39,757 nucleotides of DNA from a virus (taxonomy: Duplodnaviria > Heunggongvirae > Uroviricota > Caudoviricetes): the IMG/VR virus record IMGVR_UViG_2541047752_000002, one strand, 5' to 3'. Numbering within the stretch: the first letter of the stretch is position 1; the number at the start of each line of letters is the position of its first letter. Position numbers and translations under genes: made by a program. Positions 5,012 to 37,556 of the stretch are shown here, piece by piece. The notes beneath the pieces are model-generated. The model was not told the DNA's origin. It searched no databases and saw nothing but the letters and a program-made list of their open reading frames with translations.

Positions 5012-5374
5012 TTAACGACCTGCTGCGCGGAGTTTTCCGTCAGGTTCACCGGCAAGAGTCAGTAATTGTCCCTGGTCTTCCTGCAGAATAGTCAGGCGAC
5101 CACCGCGATTGACATACATCGGCGTTTCGGTGGTGTCTTCTTCGGAAATTTTCCCGCGGTTAGTCGGGCGAATATATGAGAGTTTGTGTTTGATTTTCAC
5201 ACGGTTCTCATCAAATGGTTCGATTTCCAGGTTGAGTGAGACCTTACCTTTGGTTTTCGTGTTCATCACACCGGAAGCGACTTCACTGAGAACTGCGCCG
5301 ATTTTGGTTTCAAATACGCCGCCGTCCAGCTCCCCGATAAATGCCTGCACATCAGTACTGCGTTCGCTAGCCAT
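5012..5374 (-). CDS. Early-left hypothetical protein (120 aa, YfdP-like)
   Basis: Start assigned to ATG at 5374 preceded by AGGAG 7 nt upstream; the 226-aa track ORF is an upstream run-on into GC-rich non-coding DNA. Confidence 0.6.
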   Translation of the reverse strand: MASERSTDVQAFIGELDGGVFETKIGAVLSEVASGVMNTKTKGKVSLNLEIEPFDENRVKIKHKLSYIRPTNRGKISEEDTTETPMYVNRGGRLTILQEDQGQLLTLAGEPDGKLRAAGR

Positions 5375-5392
5375 TTTGCTGCTCCTCATCAT

Positions 5393-5843
5393 ATCGACCC
5401 TGCAAGGCCGATTAGTTTCTCCACAAAACAGAGAAGAACACCTGTGGTGGCCGCCGCCCGGATGGATTGGGTTATGAGCCCGTCGTCCGGTGATGCTCTT
5501 CTCTGTTTTGTAAAAAGGACGGTACCAGCCGGAAGCAAGGGTACAAGCTGGTACCGCCAGGACTACACACAGCATAAAGTTGTGGTGCCGGGTGCCTCCC
5601 GGTGCCTGGCGAAGGTTGCACACCAGGCGGGTGGGTATCCACAGAAGGTCGACTGTCAGCCTCAACCTTAACCCGCGTGCGCTGAGCCGCATTCACCACA
5701 ACGCTAAGGATTCTCTCTGGTTGAAAATACTTAGCTGTTATGTGCCTGCTTTTAGCCACATCAGGCGAGGTGGACCTGGTTATTCCCCAACAACAAGGAT
5801 TTGGTTAATCTGGATATCCCCAACAACTAGCTGAGTATTCAAC
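5393..5843 (-). other. GC-rich untranslated leader with long inverted repeats (candidate structured RNA element of the leftward early transcript)
   Basis: No ORF with a credible start or Shine-Dalgarno; 16-bp inverted repeat ACAAAACAGAGAAGAA (5423-5440) with its complement (5494-5512); 9-bp stem GGTACCAGC/GCTGGTACC (5521-5555); direct repeat TCCCCAACAAC at 5784 and 5816. Confidence 0.4.
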
Positions 5844-6365
5844 GTGATAGCTGAACTGTCTGCGGCTATGGCCGCTATAAAGGAGACTGCCGGTCTTGCT
5901 AAGGTTATTAATGACGCGAAAACGGATGCAGAAGTTAAAGCTGCAACCATTGAACTCCAGAACAAACTAATCACGCTTCAGGCAGAATGCTTCTCTCTTG
6001 GCGATGCGATCCGCCTTCGTGATGAAGAGGTGATGCATCTCAAAGCAAAAATTGCAGAGTTTGAAGATTTTTGTGCCAAGGTAGAAGGATATGTCCTTGA
6101 TCAGCTTGACTCTGGTGCTTTTGTTTACTCTAAAAATGAAATTGTGAGTGGAAAAGAAATAACTGTGCATCTGTGCCCACTTTGTTATTCCAAAAATATA
6201 AAATCGATACTTCATCCGCTTCCAGTAGGTAAAACTTCTCATTTTCTTACAAGCCGTTGCCTTCACTGTGAAAATAAATTTCTTATGGAAAAAAATCCGA
6301 TGTACGAACGACCAAGATCATTACGTGAGTTGGGGCGAGATCTGAATTCGCCTTGGATTCCTTAA
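5844..6365 (+). CDS. Hypothetical coiled-coil protein with C-terminal Cys4 zinc ribbon; opposite-strand moron in the immunity region
   Basis: 173-aa ORF (GTG 5844 or ATG 5868); CPLC…(x29)…CLHC motif; AT-rich 3' half; own intrinsic terminator at 6408-6431; antisense to the leftward early operon. Confidence 0.55.
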   Translation: MIAELSAAMAAIKETAGLAKVINDAKTDAEVKAATIELQNKLITLQAECFSLGDAIRLRDEEVMHLKAKIAEFEDFCAKVEGYVLDQLDSGAFVYSKNEIVSGKEITVHLCPLCYSKNIKSILHPLPVGKTSHFLTSRCLHCENKFLMEKNPMYERPRSLRELGRDLNSPWIP

Positions 6366-6394
6366 ATCTTGCATTGGTTGGATGATACCCAGAT

Positions 6395-6406
6395 TGTTAA
6401 AGAGCT
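6395..6406 (-). promoter_or_regulatory. rrn-type boxA-like motif (GCTCTTTAACAA) on the leftward transcript, candidate nutL
   Basis: Exact 12-nt match to the remembered rrn boxA consensus on the minus strand, just downstream of the hairpin at 6408-6425 and of the putative PL. Confidence 0.4.
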
Positions 6407-6407
6407 A

Positions 6408-6431
6408 AGCGTCCTGTAGGGCGCTTTTTTG
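6408..6431 (+). terminator. Intrinsic terminator of the zinc-ribbon moron gene
   Basis: Hairpin AGCGTCCT-GTAG-GGCGCT followed by TTTTTTGTT. Confidence 0.65.
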
Positions 6432-6510
6432 TTGCTAACGAATCATCCTGGACTTCATATGCCCCAGGCGGCTACTTCGTGGGCGTCCTGCCTGTTTGTT
6501 GTTTCTCTTG

Positions 6511-6543
6511 GGTACATTATGTATCTCATAGGTACATTGTCAA
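6511..6543 (-). promoter_or_regulatory. Putative PL promoter with overlapping OL operator half-sites
   Basis: Minus strand reads TTGACA (-35), 16-nt spacer, CATAAT (-10); GGTACAT half-sites at 6511 and 6528 match those in the cI-cro intergenic region. Confidence 0.5.
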
Positions 6544-6545
6544 GT

Positions 6546-6575
6546 ATAAAAAAACCTGCCGAAGCAGGTTCATAA
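6546..6575 (-). terminator. Intrinsic terminator downstream of cI
   Basis: Minus-strand hairpin ACCTGC-TTCG-GCAGGT followed by TTTTTTT. Confidence 0.7.
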
Positions 6576-6582
6576 ACATTGA

Positions 6583-7257
6583 TTAGGCTTTGATTTTGTA
6601 TCTTCTTGGTTTTCCTGAGAAAATCACAGTTCCAATTATAGAGCAATTACCGTTGATCTTAATGTAAGGCTCAGGCCAGTTTGGGTTTAACGCTTTGAGA
6701 TAACGCTGTGTCCCATCTTCTATCAACCTTTTGAAGGTGGTTTCACCTGTATCGTGCATCAATGCAATAACGTCGTCACCGTGGCAGGCAGGTACTTCAG
6801 GATCGACAAAAATCATGTCTCCCGGGCGGTACTCATCAATCATTGAATCACCTATCACCCGCAAGATATAAGTCATTTCCCCACAGGGTACAGGGCAGGG
6901 ATACGTTTCTGCTGTGCTCAAATCAACCTCAGAATATCCAACTTCTTTCCATGCTCCGGCCTGTACCCATGATATGACAGGGACTAATGTGATTTGTTTA
7001 TTAGTGATTGAAACATCAGGTTTTTTTGTGATGTTCGTTGTCTGGTGTTCTTGATCGAGCCATCCGACAGGCAGGTCGAAACATTTTTCGATGTGTCGTG
7101 CCATGCTGTCACCGATATTTTTAGTAGCACCATCTCCCATAAACCTGCTGGTCTGGGTTGGCTCGCGATCAATCATAGTGGCAAAGGAAGAATTCCCGCC
7201 AACACCATCTCTCAGTTTTCTGGCGTTAGACCGCCGGATGTCATGGATTGTTTTCAT
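6583..7257 (-). CDS. CI-like prophage repressor (HTH plus S24/LexA-type autopeptidase domain)
   Basis: 224-aa ORF; C-terminal S24 peptidase signature (…VIGDSMIDEYRPGDMIFVDP…); divergent from cro across an operator-rich intergenic region; no Shine-Dalgarno, so probably leaderless. Confidence 0.85.
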   Translation of the reverse strand: MKTIHDIRRSNARKLRDGVGGNSSFATMIDREPTQTSRFMGDGATKNIGDSMARHIEKCFDLPVGWLDQEHQTTNITKKPDVSITNKQITLVPVISWVQAGAWKEVGYSEVDLSTAETYPCPVPCGEMTYILRVIGDSMIDEYRPGDMIFVDPEVPACHGDDVIALMHDTGETTFKRLIEDGTQRYLKALNPNWPEPYIKINGNCSIIGTVIFSGKPRRYKIKA

Positions 7258-7347
7258 AACAAAATTAAAACCCTTGTACCGTTAAGGTACAAGTATCTTG
7301 AAGGTTCATTTCAATCATGTAATATGTATACCGGAGGTACATATTGT
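7258..7347. promoter_or_regulatory. OR region with divergent PRM/PR promoters and operators
   Basis: Palindrome TGTACC-GTTAA-GGTACA (7275-7291); further GGTACA half-sites at 7286 and 7335; PR candidate TTGAAG(7298)-16 nt-TAATAT(7320); PRM candidate TTGTAC-17 nt-TTTAAT ending 7 nt before the cI ATG. Confidence 0.6.
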
Positions 7348-7548
7348 ATGAAAGTGTATTGGGACTCTTTAACCAAAGAACAGCAGGGCGAGTTGGCCGG
7401 AAAAGTTGGCTCAACACCTGGCTACTTACGGCTGGTTTTCAATGGCTATAAAAAAGCCAGTTTTGTGCTGGCTAAAAAACTTGAGCAATGCACGTCAGGT
7501 GCAATTACGAAATCTGACTTAAGACCGGATATCTATCCGAAAGATTAG
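7348..7548 (+). CDS. Cro-like repressor
   Basis: 66-aa ORF (MKVYWDSLTKEQQGELAGKVGSTPGYLRLVFNGYKKAS…) with HTH-like segment; GGAGG Shine-Dalgarno at 7334-7338; track ORF 7045-7548 is an upstream run-on. Confidence 0.75.
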   Translation: MKVYWDSLTKEQQGELAGKVGSTPGYLRLVFNGYKKASFVLAKKLEQCTSGAITKSDLRPDIYPKD

Positions 7549-32744: not shown

Positions 32745-33789
32745 ATTTCAGCGCCCGACGCTGGCAGAAAATATCAGTATGCTCCGTAACGATTTATTCG
32801 CCAGGCTGGACGTCAGCGACACGCTCCGGCGCATGGATGAAGACGTGCGGGCAAAGGTGTATGCGGCGGCGCTGCATACGGTTTACGGGTACATCGATTA
32901 TCTGGCAATGAATATGCTGCCTGACCTGTGCGATGAGTCCTGGCTGGCGCGACATGCTGCGATGAAACGGTGTCCGCGCAAGGGGGCCACGGCTGCCAGC
33001 GGGTATATGCGCTGGGAAGGTGTCAGCGATGGCCTGAAGGTGACTGCCGGGAGCGTGATTCAGCGCGATGACCTGGTTCAGTACACGGCAACTGCCGATG
33101 CAACCAGCTCCGGTGGTGTCCTGCGCGTGCCGATCGCCTGCTCAAGTGCAGGCGCGGTCGGTAACGCTGACGACGGTACGTCATTAATCCTGGTCACGCC
33201 GGTGAATGGTCTGCCGTCTTCCGGCGTGGCAGATACCCTGACAGGTGGATTTGATACTGAAGAGCTGGAAACGTGGCGCGCCCGCGTCATTGAGCGGTAT
33301 TACTGGACGCCTCAGGGCGGGGCTGACGGGGACTATGTCGTCTGGGCTAAAGAAGTGCCCGGCATTACCCGCGCATGGACATACCGTCACTGGATGGGAA
33401 CGGGAACTGTCGGTGTGATGATTGCCAGCAGTGACCTGATTAATCCCATTCCGGAAGAATCAACGGAAACGGCGGCAAGACAACATATCGGGCCACTGGC
33501 CCCGGTGGCAGGCTCTGATTTGTATGTATTCAGGCCGGTGGCGCATAAAGTGGATTTTCATATCCGTGTGACGCCGGATACACCGGAAATACGAGCCGCC
33601 ATCACCGCGGAGTTGCGTTCGTTCCTGCTGCGTGATGGTTATCCGCAGGGAGAACTGAAGGTGTCACGTATCAGTGAAGCGATTTCCGGTGCGAACGGGG
33701 AATACAGCCATCAGTTGCTTGCCCCGGCGGACAATATCTCCATTGCAAAAAATGAGCTGGCAGTTCTGGGGACGATTTCATGGACGTGA
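32731..33789 (+). CDS. Baseplate J-family protein
   Basis: 352-aa ORF in conserved baseplate order. Confidence 0.7.
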
Positions 33790-34364
33790 CAAACGATGAT
33801 TATATCCGTCTGTTGTCGGCACTGTTGCCGCCCGGTCCGGCGTGGTCAGTCAGCGATCCGGCGATTGCCGGTGCGGCACCGTCATTAACCCGCGTTCATC
33901 AGCGTGCGGATGCCCTGATGCGGGAGCTGGATCCGCGCACCACCACTGAACTGATAAACCGCTGGGAGCGTCTGTGCGGTCTGCCGGATGAATGTATTCC
34001 CGCAGGGACACAGACCCTTCGTCAGCGTCAGCAACGGCTGGATGCGAAGGTTAACCTGGCGGGCAGCATCAACGAGAATTTTTATCTTGCACAGCTTGCT
34101 GCCCTGGGCAGACCAGATGCCAACATCACGCGATACGACAAAAGCACGTTCACCTGCTCATCGGCCTGTACTGGCGCGGTGAATGCGCCGGAATGGCGGT
34201 ATTACTGGCAGGTCAACATGCCAGCTGCCACCAACACCACCTGGATGACATGTGGCGATCCCTGTGATTCCGCACTGCGTATCTGGGGCGACACCGTTGT
34301 CGAGTGTGTGCTTAACAAACTCTGCCCGTCGCATACCTACGTAATTTTTAAATATCCGGAGTAA
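33780..34364 (+). CDS. Tail protein (Mu gp48/YmfQ-like)
   Basis: 194-aa ORF immediately upstream of the tail fibre gene. Confidence 0.6.
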
Positions 34365-34367
34365 TCC

Positions 34368-35300
34368 ATGCATCGTATAGACACGAAAACCGCGCAGAAG
34401 GATAAGTTCGGCGCGGGTAAGAACGGTTTTACCCGTGGTAACCCCCAGACCGGCACACCTGCCACCGATCTGGATGATGACTACTTTGACATGTTGCAGG
34501 AAGAACTTTGTAGCGTGGTGGAGGCCTCCGGTGCCAGCCTGGAGAAGGAGCGGCACGACCAGTTGCTTACCGCGCTTCGTGCGCTGCTGTTAAGCCGCAA
34601 GAATCCGTTTGGTGATATCAAATCGGATGGCACGGTGAAAACGGCTCTCGAAAACCTTGGTTTGGGAGATGGCTCGGGGCGTTACAGCAAAACTGTCGTT
34701 TTTTCATCGTCGGGTTCATATACGTGGCCAGCTGACGTAAAACGAATTGACGTTATTCTGACTGCGGGGGGCGGCGGTGGCGGTGGATGTAACGCGGAGA
34801 ACGCAAATCAGACATTTTCAGGGGCTGGCGGAGGAGCCGGAGGTACTGTTTTTGCCACTATTTATGCGACAGACAACGATGCCGGGCCAGGGACCTATAC
34901 AGTGACAATTGGTAGCGGTGGTAGTGGTGCCAATGGGCCAGGGTCTGGAAATAATGGCGGTCATAGTTCGTTCATGACATTAACTGCGCTCGGCGGCCAG
35001 GGTGGGCAATGGGGCGGCGCTACAAATACCGCTGGCGGGCTCGGTGGTTCAGGCTCTGGCGGTTATAAAACTGAACAAGGCGGAGACGGTTCAGACGGAC
35101 AGGCGGGCCAGGCGCTATTAGTAGGCAATGGGGCATCGAGCTATTGGGGTGGCGGCGGCCGCGCTGGGCAACTGAGCGGTAATCCTGGAGTTTGCTCTGG
35201 CTCCGGCGGCGGGGGTGCATACGATAATAGCTATTCACACACGTCAGGACGTGGCGGGCACGGAGCTAATGGCGTGCTGGTAATTCGGGAGTACATGTAA
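34368..35300 (+). CDS. Tail fibre protein with glycine-rich C-terminal domain
   Basis: 310-aa ORF; N-terminal region resembles conserved tail-fibre N-termini; C-terminal half is Gly-rich low complexity. Confidence 0.75.
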
Positions 35301-35705
35301 ATGAATGATGTTTATGCAGTTGTTGATAATAACGTTGTTATTAATGTCATTATCTGGGACGGAATTTCTGAATGGAAACCAGAGGCTGGTAATTTAGTTC
35401 CGTTAAACGGCGATGCTGGCATCGGTTGGTCATATTCAGACGGAGTATTTACCGCGCCACCTCCCCCAGAACGCTCTCACAACGCGTTAGTTGCGGAGGC
35501 TGAGCTGCAGAAATCAGCACTACTGACCGTAGCAAATAACGCAATAGCACCGCTGCAGGATGCCGTTGATTTGGAAATGGCGACAGACGATGAACAGACG
35601 TTACTGCTGGCGTGGAAAAAATACAGGGTACTGCTGAACCGTGTTGATACCTCAGCGGCACCCGAAATAGAGTGGCCTACGCAACCGGGGGAGCGGGCCA
35701 GTTGA
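35301..35705 (+). CDS. Tail fibre assembly protein
   Basis: 134-aa ORF after the tail fibre; C-terminus …[12 protein letters not shown] typical of tail fibre assembly proteins. Confidence 0.75.
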
Positions 35706-35801
35706 TATCAGGCGCAGGGGCAGCATCAACTGCTGTCACTGCGTCGATGTAGTCGAGTACCGCATTCAGCCGCCTTTTTTCATCATCAGTCAGTTTGCGG
35801 C
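35677..35801 (-). pseudogene. Inverted 3' remnant of a second tail-fibre-assembly gene (decayed invertible segment)
   Basis: Minus strand translates to …[39 protein letters not shown], aligning with the C-terminus of the plus-strand gene ([36 protein letters not shown]); no start codon; convergent and overlapping. Confidence 0.6.
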
Positions 35802-36048
35802 CTACACCTCTCCGTTGACATCTTTGTTATATGGTACAACTGCGCAGAGGCCTGTCTCTCCAATTGTGCCAGTTGAATACTACGATACAACGCTAGGTCT
35901 TCCAATATGGTATAACGTCACAGCATCATCATGGCAGAGAGCAGATGGTACTAATACTTAGACTTTAAATTTATTTTCGTTTATTAATCATTGAAGTAAA
36001 ACAAATTATTAGGCGAAAATGTAGCGAATTTATGTACTTATACATGTT

Positions 36049-36090
36049 ACCCTGAAGGAGAATTCTTTTAATAAACCTTCTCCTTCAGGG
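36049..36090 (-). terminator. Hairpin downstream of the gtr operon
   Basis: 12-bp perfect inverted repeat CCCTGAAGGAGA/TCTCCTTCAGGG with AT-rich loop, just beyond the gtrC stop; no strong U-tract. Confidence 0.45.
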
Positions 36091-36098
36091 GCAAATAA

Positions 36099-37556
36099 TT
36101 ATTTGACGTAAATGTGGTTTCTGTATTTGACAAAAATCACATCACACACGCTTTCAATATCTTCAGGTTGACCATAAATTTTCTTCACAATATTCAATTG
36201 TTCTTTATTCTCAAGAATAAAGAAATTATTTCCTTTGTTATACCATTCGCTATTTGTAAGCCAGTTATCTCTTTTTATTTCATTGTTATTAAAAAGTATA
36301 TTTGCTATTTTTATGTCTCCATTCACACCAACAGAGTTAGTAAATGTGAAAGGGGCATATCCATAATTTGCTTTGTGCTCGTTGATTTTTTCTCTAATAC
36401 ATGACATCTGATTGTATCTATTATCAGTGGAGCCATTAATATTTATTGTTTTAATTCCTGATATTATACCCAAAAAAGCTATTAATAAAATAATGCTTTT
36501 TTTATTAAATTTAGATCTTGACAAAAGAATTACTGCCATAATGAAGACGGGAACAAGGTATCTTATTGTCCATATATTTCTTGGGAGGTTACTACCAATA
36601 TAAGCAGATGTCATGATTAAAATAGACAATGACAAACATATATCAATAACGCTTCTGTTTTTAAAAAGATTTCTGAAAGTGAAGTAAATTAATGCAACAA
36701 CACCAGCAAAGCGTATTGCTTTAGATAATAGATGCAGTGATGGTGTTATTTGCTCACCAAATATGTTTGCATTAAAAAACAATAAAGTTCCGCTTACTGC
36801 AGTATTTATATTAACTAAAATATTGTCATACTCAACAATCTTTACATCTGTTAGTCCTGGCAATGTAAAGCTTCCAAGGTTTAAAAACAAAAAACCGATC
36901 GCCTTGGAAATTAAATATGAAGAAAACAATCCAGCCATTATAATAAGGTATTTCTTTTTTCTTTCCTTGTGCAACAAAAATATTGCTGCTAATGTTAGCG
37001 GTGCAACGTATATATAGACTGAGATATTATCGCTAAAAATAGCCATAGAGGATAGTATGGTTGAAAAGTATACAAATAATATATTTTCTGTTTTAATATA
37101 CTTTTCTGTAAATATTAAGCATCCAATGATAAATATGTATGTACCCATGTGAATGCACGCTGAAAGCATTGATGTAACAGCCATGTCAGCAGGGAAAACA
37201 AAGTAGAATATAATTAGCGCTAATGCTAATGATTTATTTGTAGACAGCCTGTATATCAAAAATATCACAGTAGCATACATCGCTGGTGGTATTATATATG
37301 CAAGCTCACTGCTGTAGCCAAATAATATAGAGGCGATCGCATAAAAAGATACTTCTGTAAAGTAAAAAGGAACCGTGGATAGCATCCATCCATGAAGTAA
37401 GTAATTACCTTCTGACATATCCTTACCAAGCAAAAGCACTGTTGCCGCATCTGTATTTGGTGGGAATATGTTTAAGCTGGCAAAGTGATATAGCATAAAC
37501 AATGACGCAAATAATAAAATCACGAATATAAATTTAATTTGTTTTTTGAAAATCAT
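36099..37556 (-). CDS. Serotype-specific O-antigen glucosyltransferase (Gtr type, polytopic membrane protein)
   Basis: 485-aa very hydrophobic AT-rich ORF immediately downstream of gtrA-gtrB. Confidence 0.75.
   Translation of the reverse strand: MIFKKQIKFIFVILLFASLFMLYHFASLNIFPPNTDAATVLLLGKDMSEGNYLLHGWMLSTVPFYFTEVSFYAIASILFGYSSELAYIIPPAMYATVIFLIYRLSTNKSLALALIIFYFVFPADMAVTSMLSACIHMGTYIFIIGCLIFTEKYIKTENILFVYFSTILSSMAIFSDNISVYIYVAPLTLAAIFLLHKERKKKYLIIMAGLFSSYLISKAIGFLFLNLGSFTLPGLTDVKIVEYDNILVNINTAVSGTLLFFNANIFGEQITPSLHLLSKAIRFAGVVALIYFTFRNLFKNRSVIDICLSLSILIMTSAYIGSNLPRNIWTIRYLVPVFIMAVILLSRSKFNKKSIILLIAFLGIISGIKTININGSTDNRYNQMSCIREKINEHKANYGYAPFTFTNSVGVNGDIKIANILFNNNEIKRDNWLTNSEWYNKGNNFFILENKEQLNIVKKIYGQPEDIESVCDVIFVKYRNHIYVK

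Follow-up and report, generated by a model that had tools for sequence, protein, structure and literature searches.

The region that follows the tail-fibre assembly gene of this SfV-like prophage is probably a fossil recombination joint and not a working element: one and the same recombination would there have truncated an invertible tail-fibre segment and brought in the gtr arm. By the window we mean the whole stretch of DNA that was analysed (39,757 nt), and it contains the complete prophage, with the host genes ybhC and ybhB on either side. The landmarks of this setting are the following.

1-1284, ybhC, left host flank (NCBIfam equivalog match)
1419-2489, tyrosine integrase gene, 356 aa
30692-34364, Mu-like baseplate genes, including a Mu gp48/YmfQ homologue
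39281-39757, ybhB, right host flank (NCBIfam equivalog match)

The ybhC/ybhB interval is the region of the lambda attachment site on the K-12 map. From 2738 on, the prophage shares 95-96% identity with phages SfIV and SfV in its early and structural regions, and it is at this position, to the right of the integrase gene, that SfV homology begins. A related prophage, L002, carries a near-identical tail/gtr arm but has intS and sits at argW/yfdC; the two locations taken together indicate that the integration module has been swapped.

The locus itself lies to the right of the baseplate genes, and includes two truncated genes, which we will call stumps, placed end to end between the intact chaperone gene and the gtr cassette.

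34368-35300, plus strand, tail-fibre gene, 310 aa (ORF; Pfam Gly_rich_2, E 1.8e-18)
34647-34672, plus strand, orphan left crossover site of Din/Pin type (motif search, e14 repeat match)
35301-35705, plus strand, intact tail-fibre assembly (chaperone) gene tfa, 134 aa (Pfam Caudo_TAP, E 1e-32, 113.5 bits)
35677-35805, minus strand, remnant of tfa', an inverted second chaperone gene: last 42 codons and stop codon, no start (Caudo_TAP, tblastn, BLASTP)
35803-35832, no strand, stretch of 30 nt between the two stumps (tfa' homology ends at 35802, tailspike homology starts at 35833)
35833-35961, plus strand, 3' end of a P22-like tailspike gene: last 42 codons and stop codon (tblastn)
36050-36090, no strand, perfect 13-bp hairpin between the tailspike remnant and the gtrC stop codon (inverted-repeat scan)
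36099-38832, minus strand, gtr O-antigen modification cassette (Pfam Glycos_transf_2, GtrA_DPMS_TM)
36099-37556, minus strand, gtrC, 485 aa, named by its position in the cassette
37556-38473, minus strand, gtrB
38470-38832, minus strand, gtrA

An earlier note on this DNA had assigned the whole of 35677-36098 to the inverted remnant of a second tail-fibre assembly gene, with a gtr cassette beyond it. The cassette is indeed there, gtrC-gtrB-gtrA in convergent orientation at 36099-38832, but the tfa' remnant accounts for 35677-35805 only, and the remainder of the span consists of the tailspike 3' end (35833-35961) and the hairpin (36050-36090).

The fibre protein is best described in two parts, a constant N-terminal portion of about 100 aa, which is common to e14 StfP and SfV orf21, and a glycine-rich variable C-terminal portion. 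The first 302-312 nt of the gene share 95-98% identity with SfV, SfI, SfII, SfIV and e14 stfP, and homology ends there; in tblastn searches against the window, SfV orf21 matches over residues 1-105 at 94% and e14 StfP over residues 1-128 at 80%. With its ORF intact, the fibre is locked into a single form. In its C-terminal half, the adjoining tfa is of the SfV orf22 type (60.5% identity over residues 54-129).

Two annotation matters should be kept in mind when working with these genes. In L002 (6001-6933) and L009 (3569-4501), RefSeq divides the fibre gene into a 'StfP' pseudogene and a glycine-rich protein; the 310-codon frame is open and unbroken in both, as it is in the window, and the split is an annotation artefact of a mosaic gene. 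An Rfam scan of 35300-36300 returned as its sole match a sub-threshold hit to IS009 (RF02111) at 35468-35656 on the plus strand (48.8 bits against a gathering score of 117, E 6.2e-10), which falls entirely within the tfa coding sequence. The IS009 family itself may have its origin in a K-12 cryptic prophage, in a stretch related to tfa.

The first stump is what the earlier note had described as a startless minus-strand fragment homologous to the C-terminus of the chaperone, and this description is borne out, at 42 codons and with similarity well beyond chance to both Caudo_TAP and TfaE. Homology spans 35680 to 35802, the N-terminal ~100-160 codons are missing, a stop codon a few codons upstream closes the frame, and the frame contains no ATG, GTG or TTG start that would give an ORF of at least 30 aa. 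Against Pfam Caudo_TAP (PF02413), the stump aligns with positions 95-130 of 131 at 40.2 bits (cut-off 22.1; E 4.7e-10); it therefore passes the gathering score but is a fragment and not a full member of the family. Residues 160-200 of e14 TfaE match it at 68% identity (tblastn over the whole window, E 1.3e-12), and the C-terminus of the neighbouring Tfa at 43% over 35 aa (BLASTP, E 6e-7). Judged by these identities, the stump is of the TfaE type, whereas its intact neighbour is of the SfV orf22 type.

The two chaperone genes converge with an overlap of 29 nt, and an overlap of equal length is found in the tfaP/tfaE pair of e14 and in the pairs of L007 and L008, which agrees with the convergent, overlapping arrangement of invertible segments that had been proposed. 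One might object that a short, startless frame lying opposite a real gene for 29 nt is just where a chance similarity or a misreading could arise, and that the 42 codons do not come from a tfa gene at all. We regard this as practically out of the question: the Pfam score is 40.2 bits against a cut-off of 22.1, the match to e14 TfaE reaches E 1.3e-12 with the whole window as search space, 100 of the 129 nt of the frame lie outside the overlap, and PGAP has called the same pseudogene independently. The Caudo_TAP and TfaE matches refute the objection. In RefSeq, related genomes contain the identical stretch, to which PGAP gives the label 'tail fiber assembly protein, incomplete, missing N-terminus', so that the stump is already recorded as a pseudogene in public annotation.

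The P segment of e14 is bounded by inverted repeats, TTGGTTTGGGAGAAGG and its complement (PMC12529663), and is flipped by Pin-type invertases (PMC12529663; PMC4272514). In the window, the repeat TTGGTTTGGGAGAAGG is present at 34657-34672 with 15 of its 16 positions (one mismatch), and the core AAACCTTGGTTT of the crossover site at 34652-34663. The site lies within the fibre gene, at codons ~97-102, exactly where fibre homology between phages stops. Both inverted repeats can be located in e14 (L004) and in L007, an SfV-like prophage with an intact segment that has two fibre/chaperone sets; they are 1.6-1.8 kb apart, and each segment is accompanied by pinE. The earlier note had called for such a comparison with relatives that retain the segment, and the layouts of L007 and e14 match its reading. 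It had also anticipated crossover repeats near 34368 and 35800. A left site does exist, at 34657-34672 rather than near 34368, and there is none near 35800.

No second site is found in the window on either strand when up to three mismatches to the e14 repeat, or one to the Din core AAACCNNGGTTT, are allowed. Likewise, an inverted-repeat scan of 33500-37000 gave no plausible pair except the hairpin at 36050-36090, and the position at which a partner would be expected, 1.6-1.8 kb away as in an intact segment, falls inside gtrC. The alternative fibre gene and the Gin/Pin-type invertase, which had been said to be absent, are absent from the whole 39.7-kb window: tblastn with e14 PinE found no serine invertase of the Gin/Cin/Pin kind (best E 7.3), and tblastn with StfE found no alternative fibre (best E 0.11). 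As ybhC and ybhB mark the limits of the prophage, the invertase, the alternative fibre gene and the second site are missing from all of it and not only from this locus. One fibre/chaperone set is complete (34368-35705), the second is reduced to the 42 codons of tfa', and only 293 nt separate the tfa' stump from gtrC.

The recombinational enhancer, the Fis-binding sis, normally lies inside the 5' end of the invertase gene, and because that gene is absent, the enhancer is presumed to be absent as well. With one crossover site and, presumably, no enhancer in cis, inversion is impossible even with Pin enzymes supplied by other prophages; the site owes its survival solely to the part of the fibre protein (ALENLGLG) that it encodes. 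The region lacks the defining features of a functional Din-family invertible segment. It does possess what one expects of a relic or descendant of an e14-type P segment, and reads as such: a tfa/tfa' overlap, a stump of the TfaE type and a crossover site downstream of ymfQ. As a longer shot, the orphan site could be used in trans by PinE, PinQ or PinR, pairing with e14 sites, which would allow chromosome rearrangement or the exchange of fibre tips between prophages.

The second stump points to where the right-hand partner of the joint came from. A plus-strand ORF at 35815-35961 (48 aa, without a Pfam match) ends in GTTAQRPVSPIVPVEYYDTTLGLPIWYNVTASSWQRADGTNT, and the stump carries the motif GTTAQRP...YYDTTLGLPIWY. 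In tblastn, residues 547-588 of the 588-aa tailspike of L005 match 35833-35958 at 78.6% identity (E 1.6e-16), and the tailspike of L006 matches with E 7.8e-14; at the DNA level, tailspike identity is 84-90% and begins only at 35878. The head-binding domain and the right-handed beta-helix body of a P22-like tailspike are absent, and only the last 42 residues are present. The stump is a gene fragment, one that the earlier note missed and that is unannotated.

L005 and L006 are P22-like prophages, the former with arc/ant immunity genes and the latter with DNA-ejection genes, and in both a convergent gtrC-gtrB-gtrA cassette lies 30-45 nt beyond the end of the full tailspike gene. L006 adjoins ybhB, as does the prophage of the window. 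The window shares 96% identity with L005 and L006 over gtrB, gtrA and the flank downstream, and has a different gtrC allele. The most telling comparison is that with L003, an SfV-like prophage that has the same tfa' stump and joint: it is collinear with the P22-like L005 at 98.9% identity over 3,053 nt, from the equivalent of window position 35878, in the tailspike 3' end, through gtrA. The tailspike matches and the collinearity of L003, L005 and L006 together identify the DNA to the right of ~35833-35878 as a P22-type right arm. No donor tailspike that would carry the homology further upstream than 35833 was found, either by tblastn on phages, which gave distant tail-fibre and tailspike ends with the same C-terminal motif, or in one large protein search, where the only matches were six short ORFs of 59-85 aa, none of them a full-length tailspike.

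Between the stumps, the 30 nt at 35803-35832 should contain the recombination breakpoint, to judge from where the two homologies end; no donor that extends the homology into this stretch was found. The window, L002, L003 and L009 do not differ in the sequence of the joint.

The history that we favour begins with a temperate phage of the SfV/e14 type, which would have had a Mu-like baseplate and a Pin-type invertible tail-fibre segment in the order fibre N-terminus, crossover site, fibre C-terminal part with tfa, inverted tfa' with the alternative fibre C-terminal part, second crossover site and invertase. In one illegitimate recombination, tfa' would then have been broken ~125 nt before its 3' end and a P22-like tailspike gene ~130-160 nt before its own, and the two joined at these points, a P22-like arm (tailspike end, gtrC, gtrB, gtrA and att) taking the place of all that had lain to the right. 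The losses would have comprised the greater part of tfa', the alternative fibre and, beyond it, the right crossover site, the invertase and the enhancer that goes with it. What remained would be a single fixed fibre, with its glycine-rich tip and its own chaperone; the phage would have given up switching and gained O-antigen modification. We infer a single event and this direction of events. Because they have no start codons and are only 42 codons each, the stumps are expected to be silent, and they are most likely inert as well as non-functional.

The loss of host-range switching that had been proposed fits this history, since the layout matches the intact segments of e14 and L007 and the missing parts are absent from the whole prophage. 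Its coupling to the acquisition of the gtr genes, put forward as a possibility, now looks stronger than proposed, with a tailspike stump lying 30 nt from tfa' and collinear with gtrCBA.

The ancestry can also be read differently. A lineage without an invertase, such as the SfV-like phages, could have acquired the fibre C-terminal part, tfa and 125 nt of tfa' as a partial cassette, by a left recombination in the conserved fibre N-terminus or the crossover site, and no switch would have been lost here. SfV, SfI, SfII and SfIV do have the constant fibre N-terminus and a single crossover site without an invertase, the fibre homology breaks exactly at the crossover site, as expected of a hotspot of cassette exchange, and no intact ancestor was found. 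An intact relative, with this exact fibre/tfa pair plus a full tfa', second fibre and pin, was found neither in complete E. coli genomes nor in phage records; all ~66-69 E. coli genomes with this fibre are already truncated, and no phage record carries it. The intact ancestor is hypothetical for this reason, and the closest full-length tfa' genes have a DNA identity of only ~70-75%. What makes us consider an import unlikely, though a serious alternative, is the other side of the break: the right partner of tfa' is a P22-like tailspike stump and not the tfa-terminator-gtr junction of the SfV type, a gtr-bearing SfV-like recipient would need to have had a tailspike stump already, and a single event accounts for both stumps more simply. 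That the lineage once carried a working switch would follow from the favoured history and not from an imported cassette.

The single truncating recombination must also be weighed against stepwise decay in place, in which the invertase was lost, deletions followed, and the gtr arm arrived independently, the adjacency of the stumps being a coincidence. Decayed segments do exist, L008 being an example, and the 30 nt that separate the stumps might be what further events left behind. We find this highly improbable, as the two stumps are similar in size and almost abut, and lineages that differ in gtrC allele and attachment site have the joint in common down to the last base, a uniformity that speaks for one old event rather than ongoing erosion. 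The word 'decayed' in the earlier note therefore holds in so far as the segment is a relic; a single truncating recombination describes it better than gradual erosion. The unassigned stretch at 35803-35832 and the onset of DNA homology only at 35878 leave room for more than one event, or for a different donor tailspike.

A different decay stage of the same kind of switch can be seen in L008 (E. coli EC20-4B-2, 5042-7353). Neither crossover site and neither fibre/tfa set has been lost from this two-arm segment, whose alternative fibres are of the glycine-rich and the gp53-like kind, but one tfa is truncated at its 5' end (without the N-terminus) and the recombinase gene is truncated. Its glycine-rich tip is 53% identical to that of the window, from which it follows that a glycine-rich fibre tip can be one arm of a two-arm segment.

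The joint is widespread. At an identity of at least 95%, the tfa' stump is present in 69 of 5,426 complete E. coli genomes, and the stretch next to it in 77 of the same 5,426, a few of these matches being true tailspike genes. The carriers of the joint (~70 of the 5,426) include EAEC strain 042. The joint occurs at two attachment sites, ybhB and argW/yfdC with intS, and is followed by at least three different gtrC alleles.

The gene in the gtrC position (485 aa, with many predicted hydrophobic stretches) has no Pfam or NCBIfam family match and is annotated as a 'hypothetical protein' in L002. The hairpin next to its stop codon, which as RNA folds at -23.4 kcal/mol (z -5.15), occurs with this gtrC allele only, and is a probable, predicted transcription stop for the converging units. 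A simple promoter and terminator scan gave nothing beyond chance and left the hairpin at 36050-36090 uncalled, because its loop is 15 nt and it has no T run.

When the window is compared with L002, L003 and L009, the joint is identical up to the stretch encoding YYDTTLGLPIW, in the tailspike motif; beyond it, divergence tracks three gtrC alleles, and the sequences converge again in gtrB. This pattern suggests that gtrC alleles were later exchanged with P22-like prophages by homologous recombination, for which the conserved tailspike motif would have provided the left anchor and gtrB the right one. We would tentatively go a step further, in a suggestion that we rate somewhat below even, and propose that the stumps serve as homology anchors through which SfV-like myovirus and P22-like podovirus prophages swap gtrC cassettes, and with them serotype specificity. 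The tailspike 3' stump would act on the left and gtrB/gtrA on the right, and a shared attachment site would favour the exchange. If this is true, the joint is a recurrent conduit for O-antigen-modification alleles across phage morphotypes.

For those who annotate such genomes, the tfa' stump is a real but ordinary scar of phage mosaicism, the relic of a well-known kind of switch, and the current understanding of invertible segments and mosaicism is unchanged by it. The value of the analysis is mainly in annotation, in that it explains an annotated pseudogene and adds an unannotated tailspike fragment at 35833-35961. It also indicates that a widespread type of E. coli prophage, found in EAEC 042, has a fixed and not a switchable host-range determinant. 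The joint offers a clean, datable case of a myovirus tail module joined to a podovirus gtr/att arm, and the way in which the sequences diverge hints at a route by which gtrC specificity alleles pass from one phage type to another, unrelated one.

Among known systems, Mu G, P1 C and the Din family (Gin/Cin/Pin/Hin) share a design in which a constant fibre N-terminus can be combined with either of two opposite sets of fibre C-terminus and chaperone, the crossover site being within the fibre gene. By established knowledge the window follows the same design, our direct comparison having covered e14-type members only; unlike Mu G and P1 C, it is a relic without recombinase, enhancer or second site. 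P1-like plasmids gave matches of ~75% identity to the tfa/tfa' overlap region.

The closest counterpart of the tail-fibre locus is the P segment of e14 (stfP-tfaP / tfaE-stfE, pinE). Both have ymfQ (Mu gp48-like) upstream of the fibre gene, a constant fibre N-terminus (80% over 128 aa), the crossover sequence (15/16) at the boundary of constant and variable parts, and convergent tfa genes with a 29-nt overlap, the stump being 68% identical to the C-terminus of TfaE. Unlike e14, the window keeps only 42 codons of the second tfa, without an stfE-type gene, right crossover site or pinE, its variable fibre part is glycine-rich and not gp53-like, and the element cannot invert.

In genome type, the prophage belongs with SfV, SfI, SfII and SfIV, with which it shares 95-96% identity over the early and structural regions, the Mu-like baseplate genes, the fibre N-terminus with a single crossover site, and gtrA-gtrB-gtrC at the right end of the prophage. 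It differs from SfV in its fibre tip, gtrC, integrase and attachment site. The interval between tfa (orf22) and gtrV in SfV (L001, 6063-6190) contains neither a tfa' stump nor a tailspike stump; the SfV junction being free of stumps and that of the window possessing them, gtr genes must have been joined to SfV-type tail modules at least twice, at different junctions.

Unlike the P22-like prophages, the window has just the final ~130 nt of the tailspike gene, placed on a tail module of the myovirus and not the podovirus type. From there on, it resembles the P22-like right arm (tailspike - gtrCBA - att), with the last 42 tailspike codons followed by convergent gtrC-gtrB-gtrA and with 96-99% identity over gtrB, gtrA and the flank, and one of the P22-like examples is likewise found at the ybhB site.
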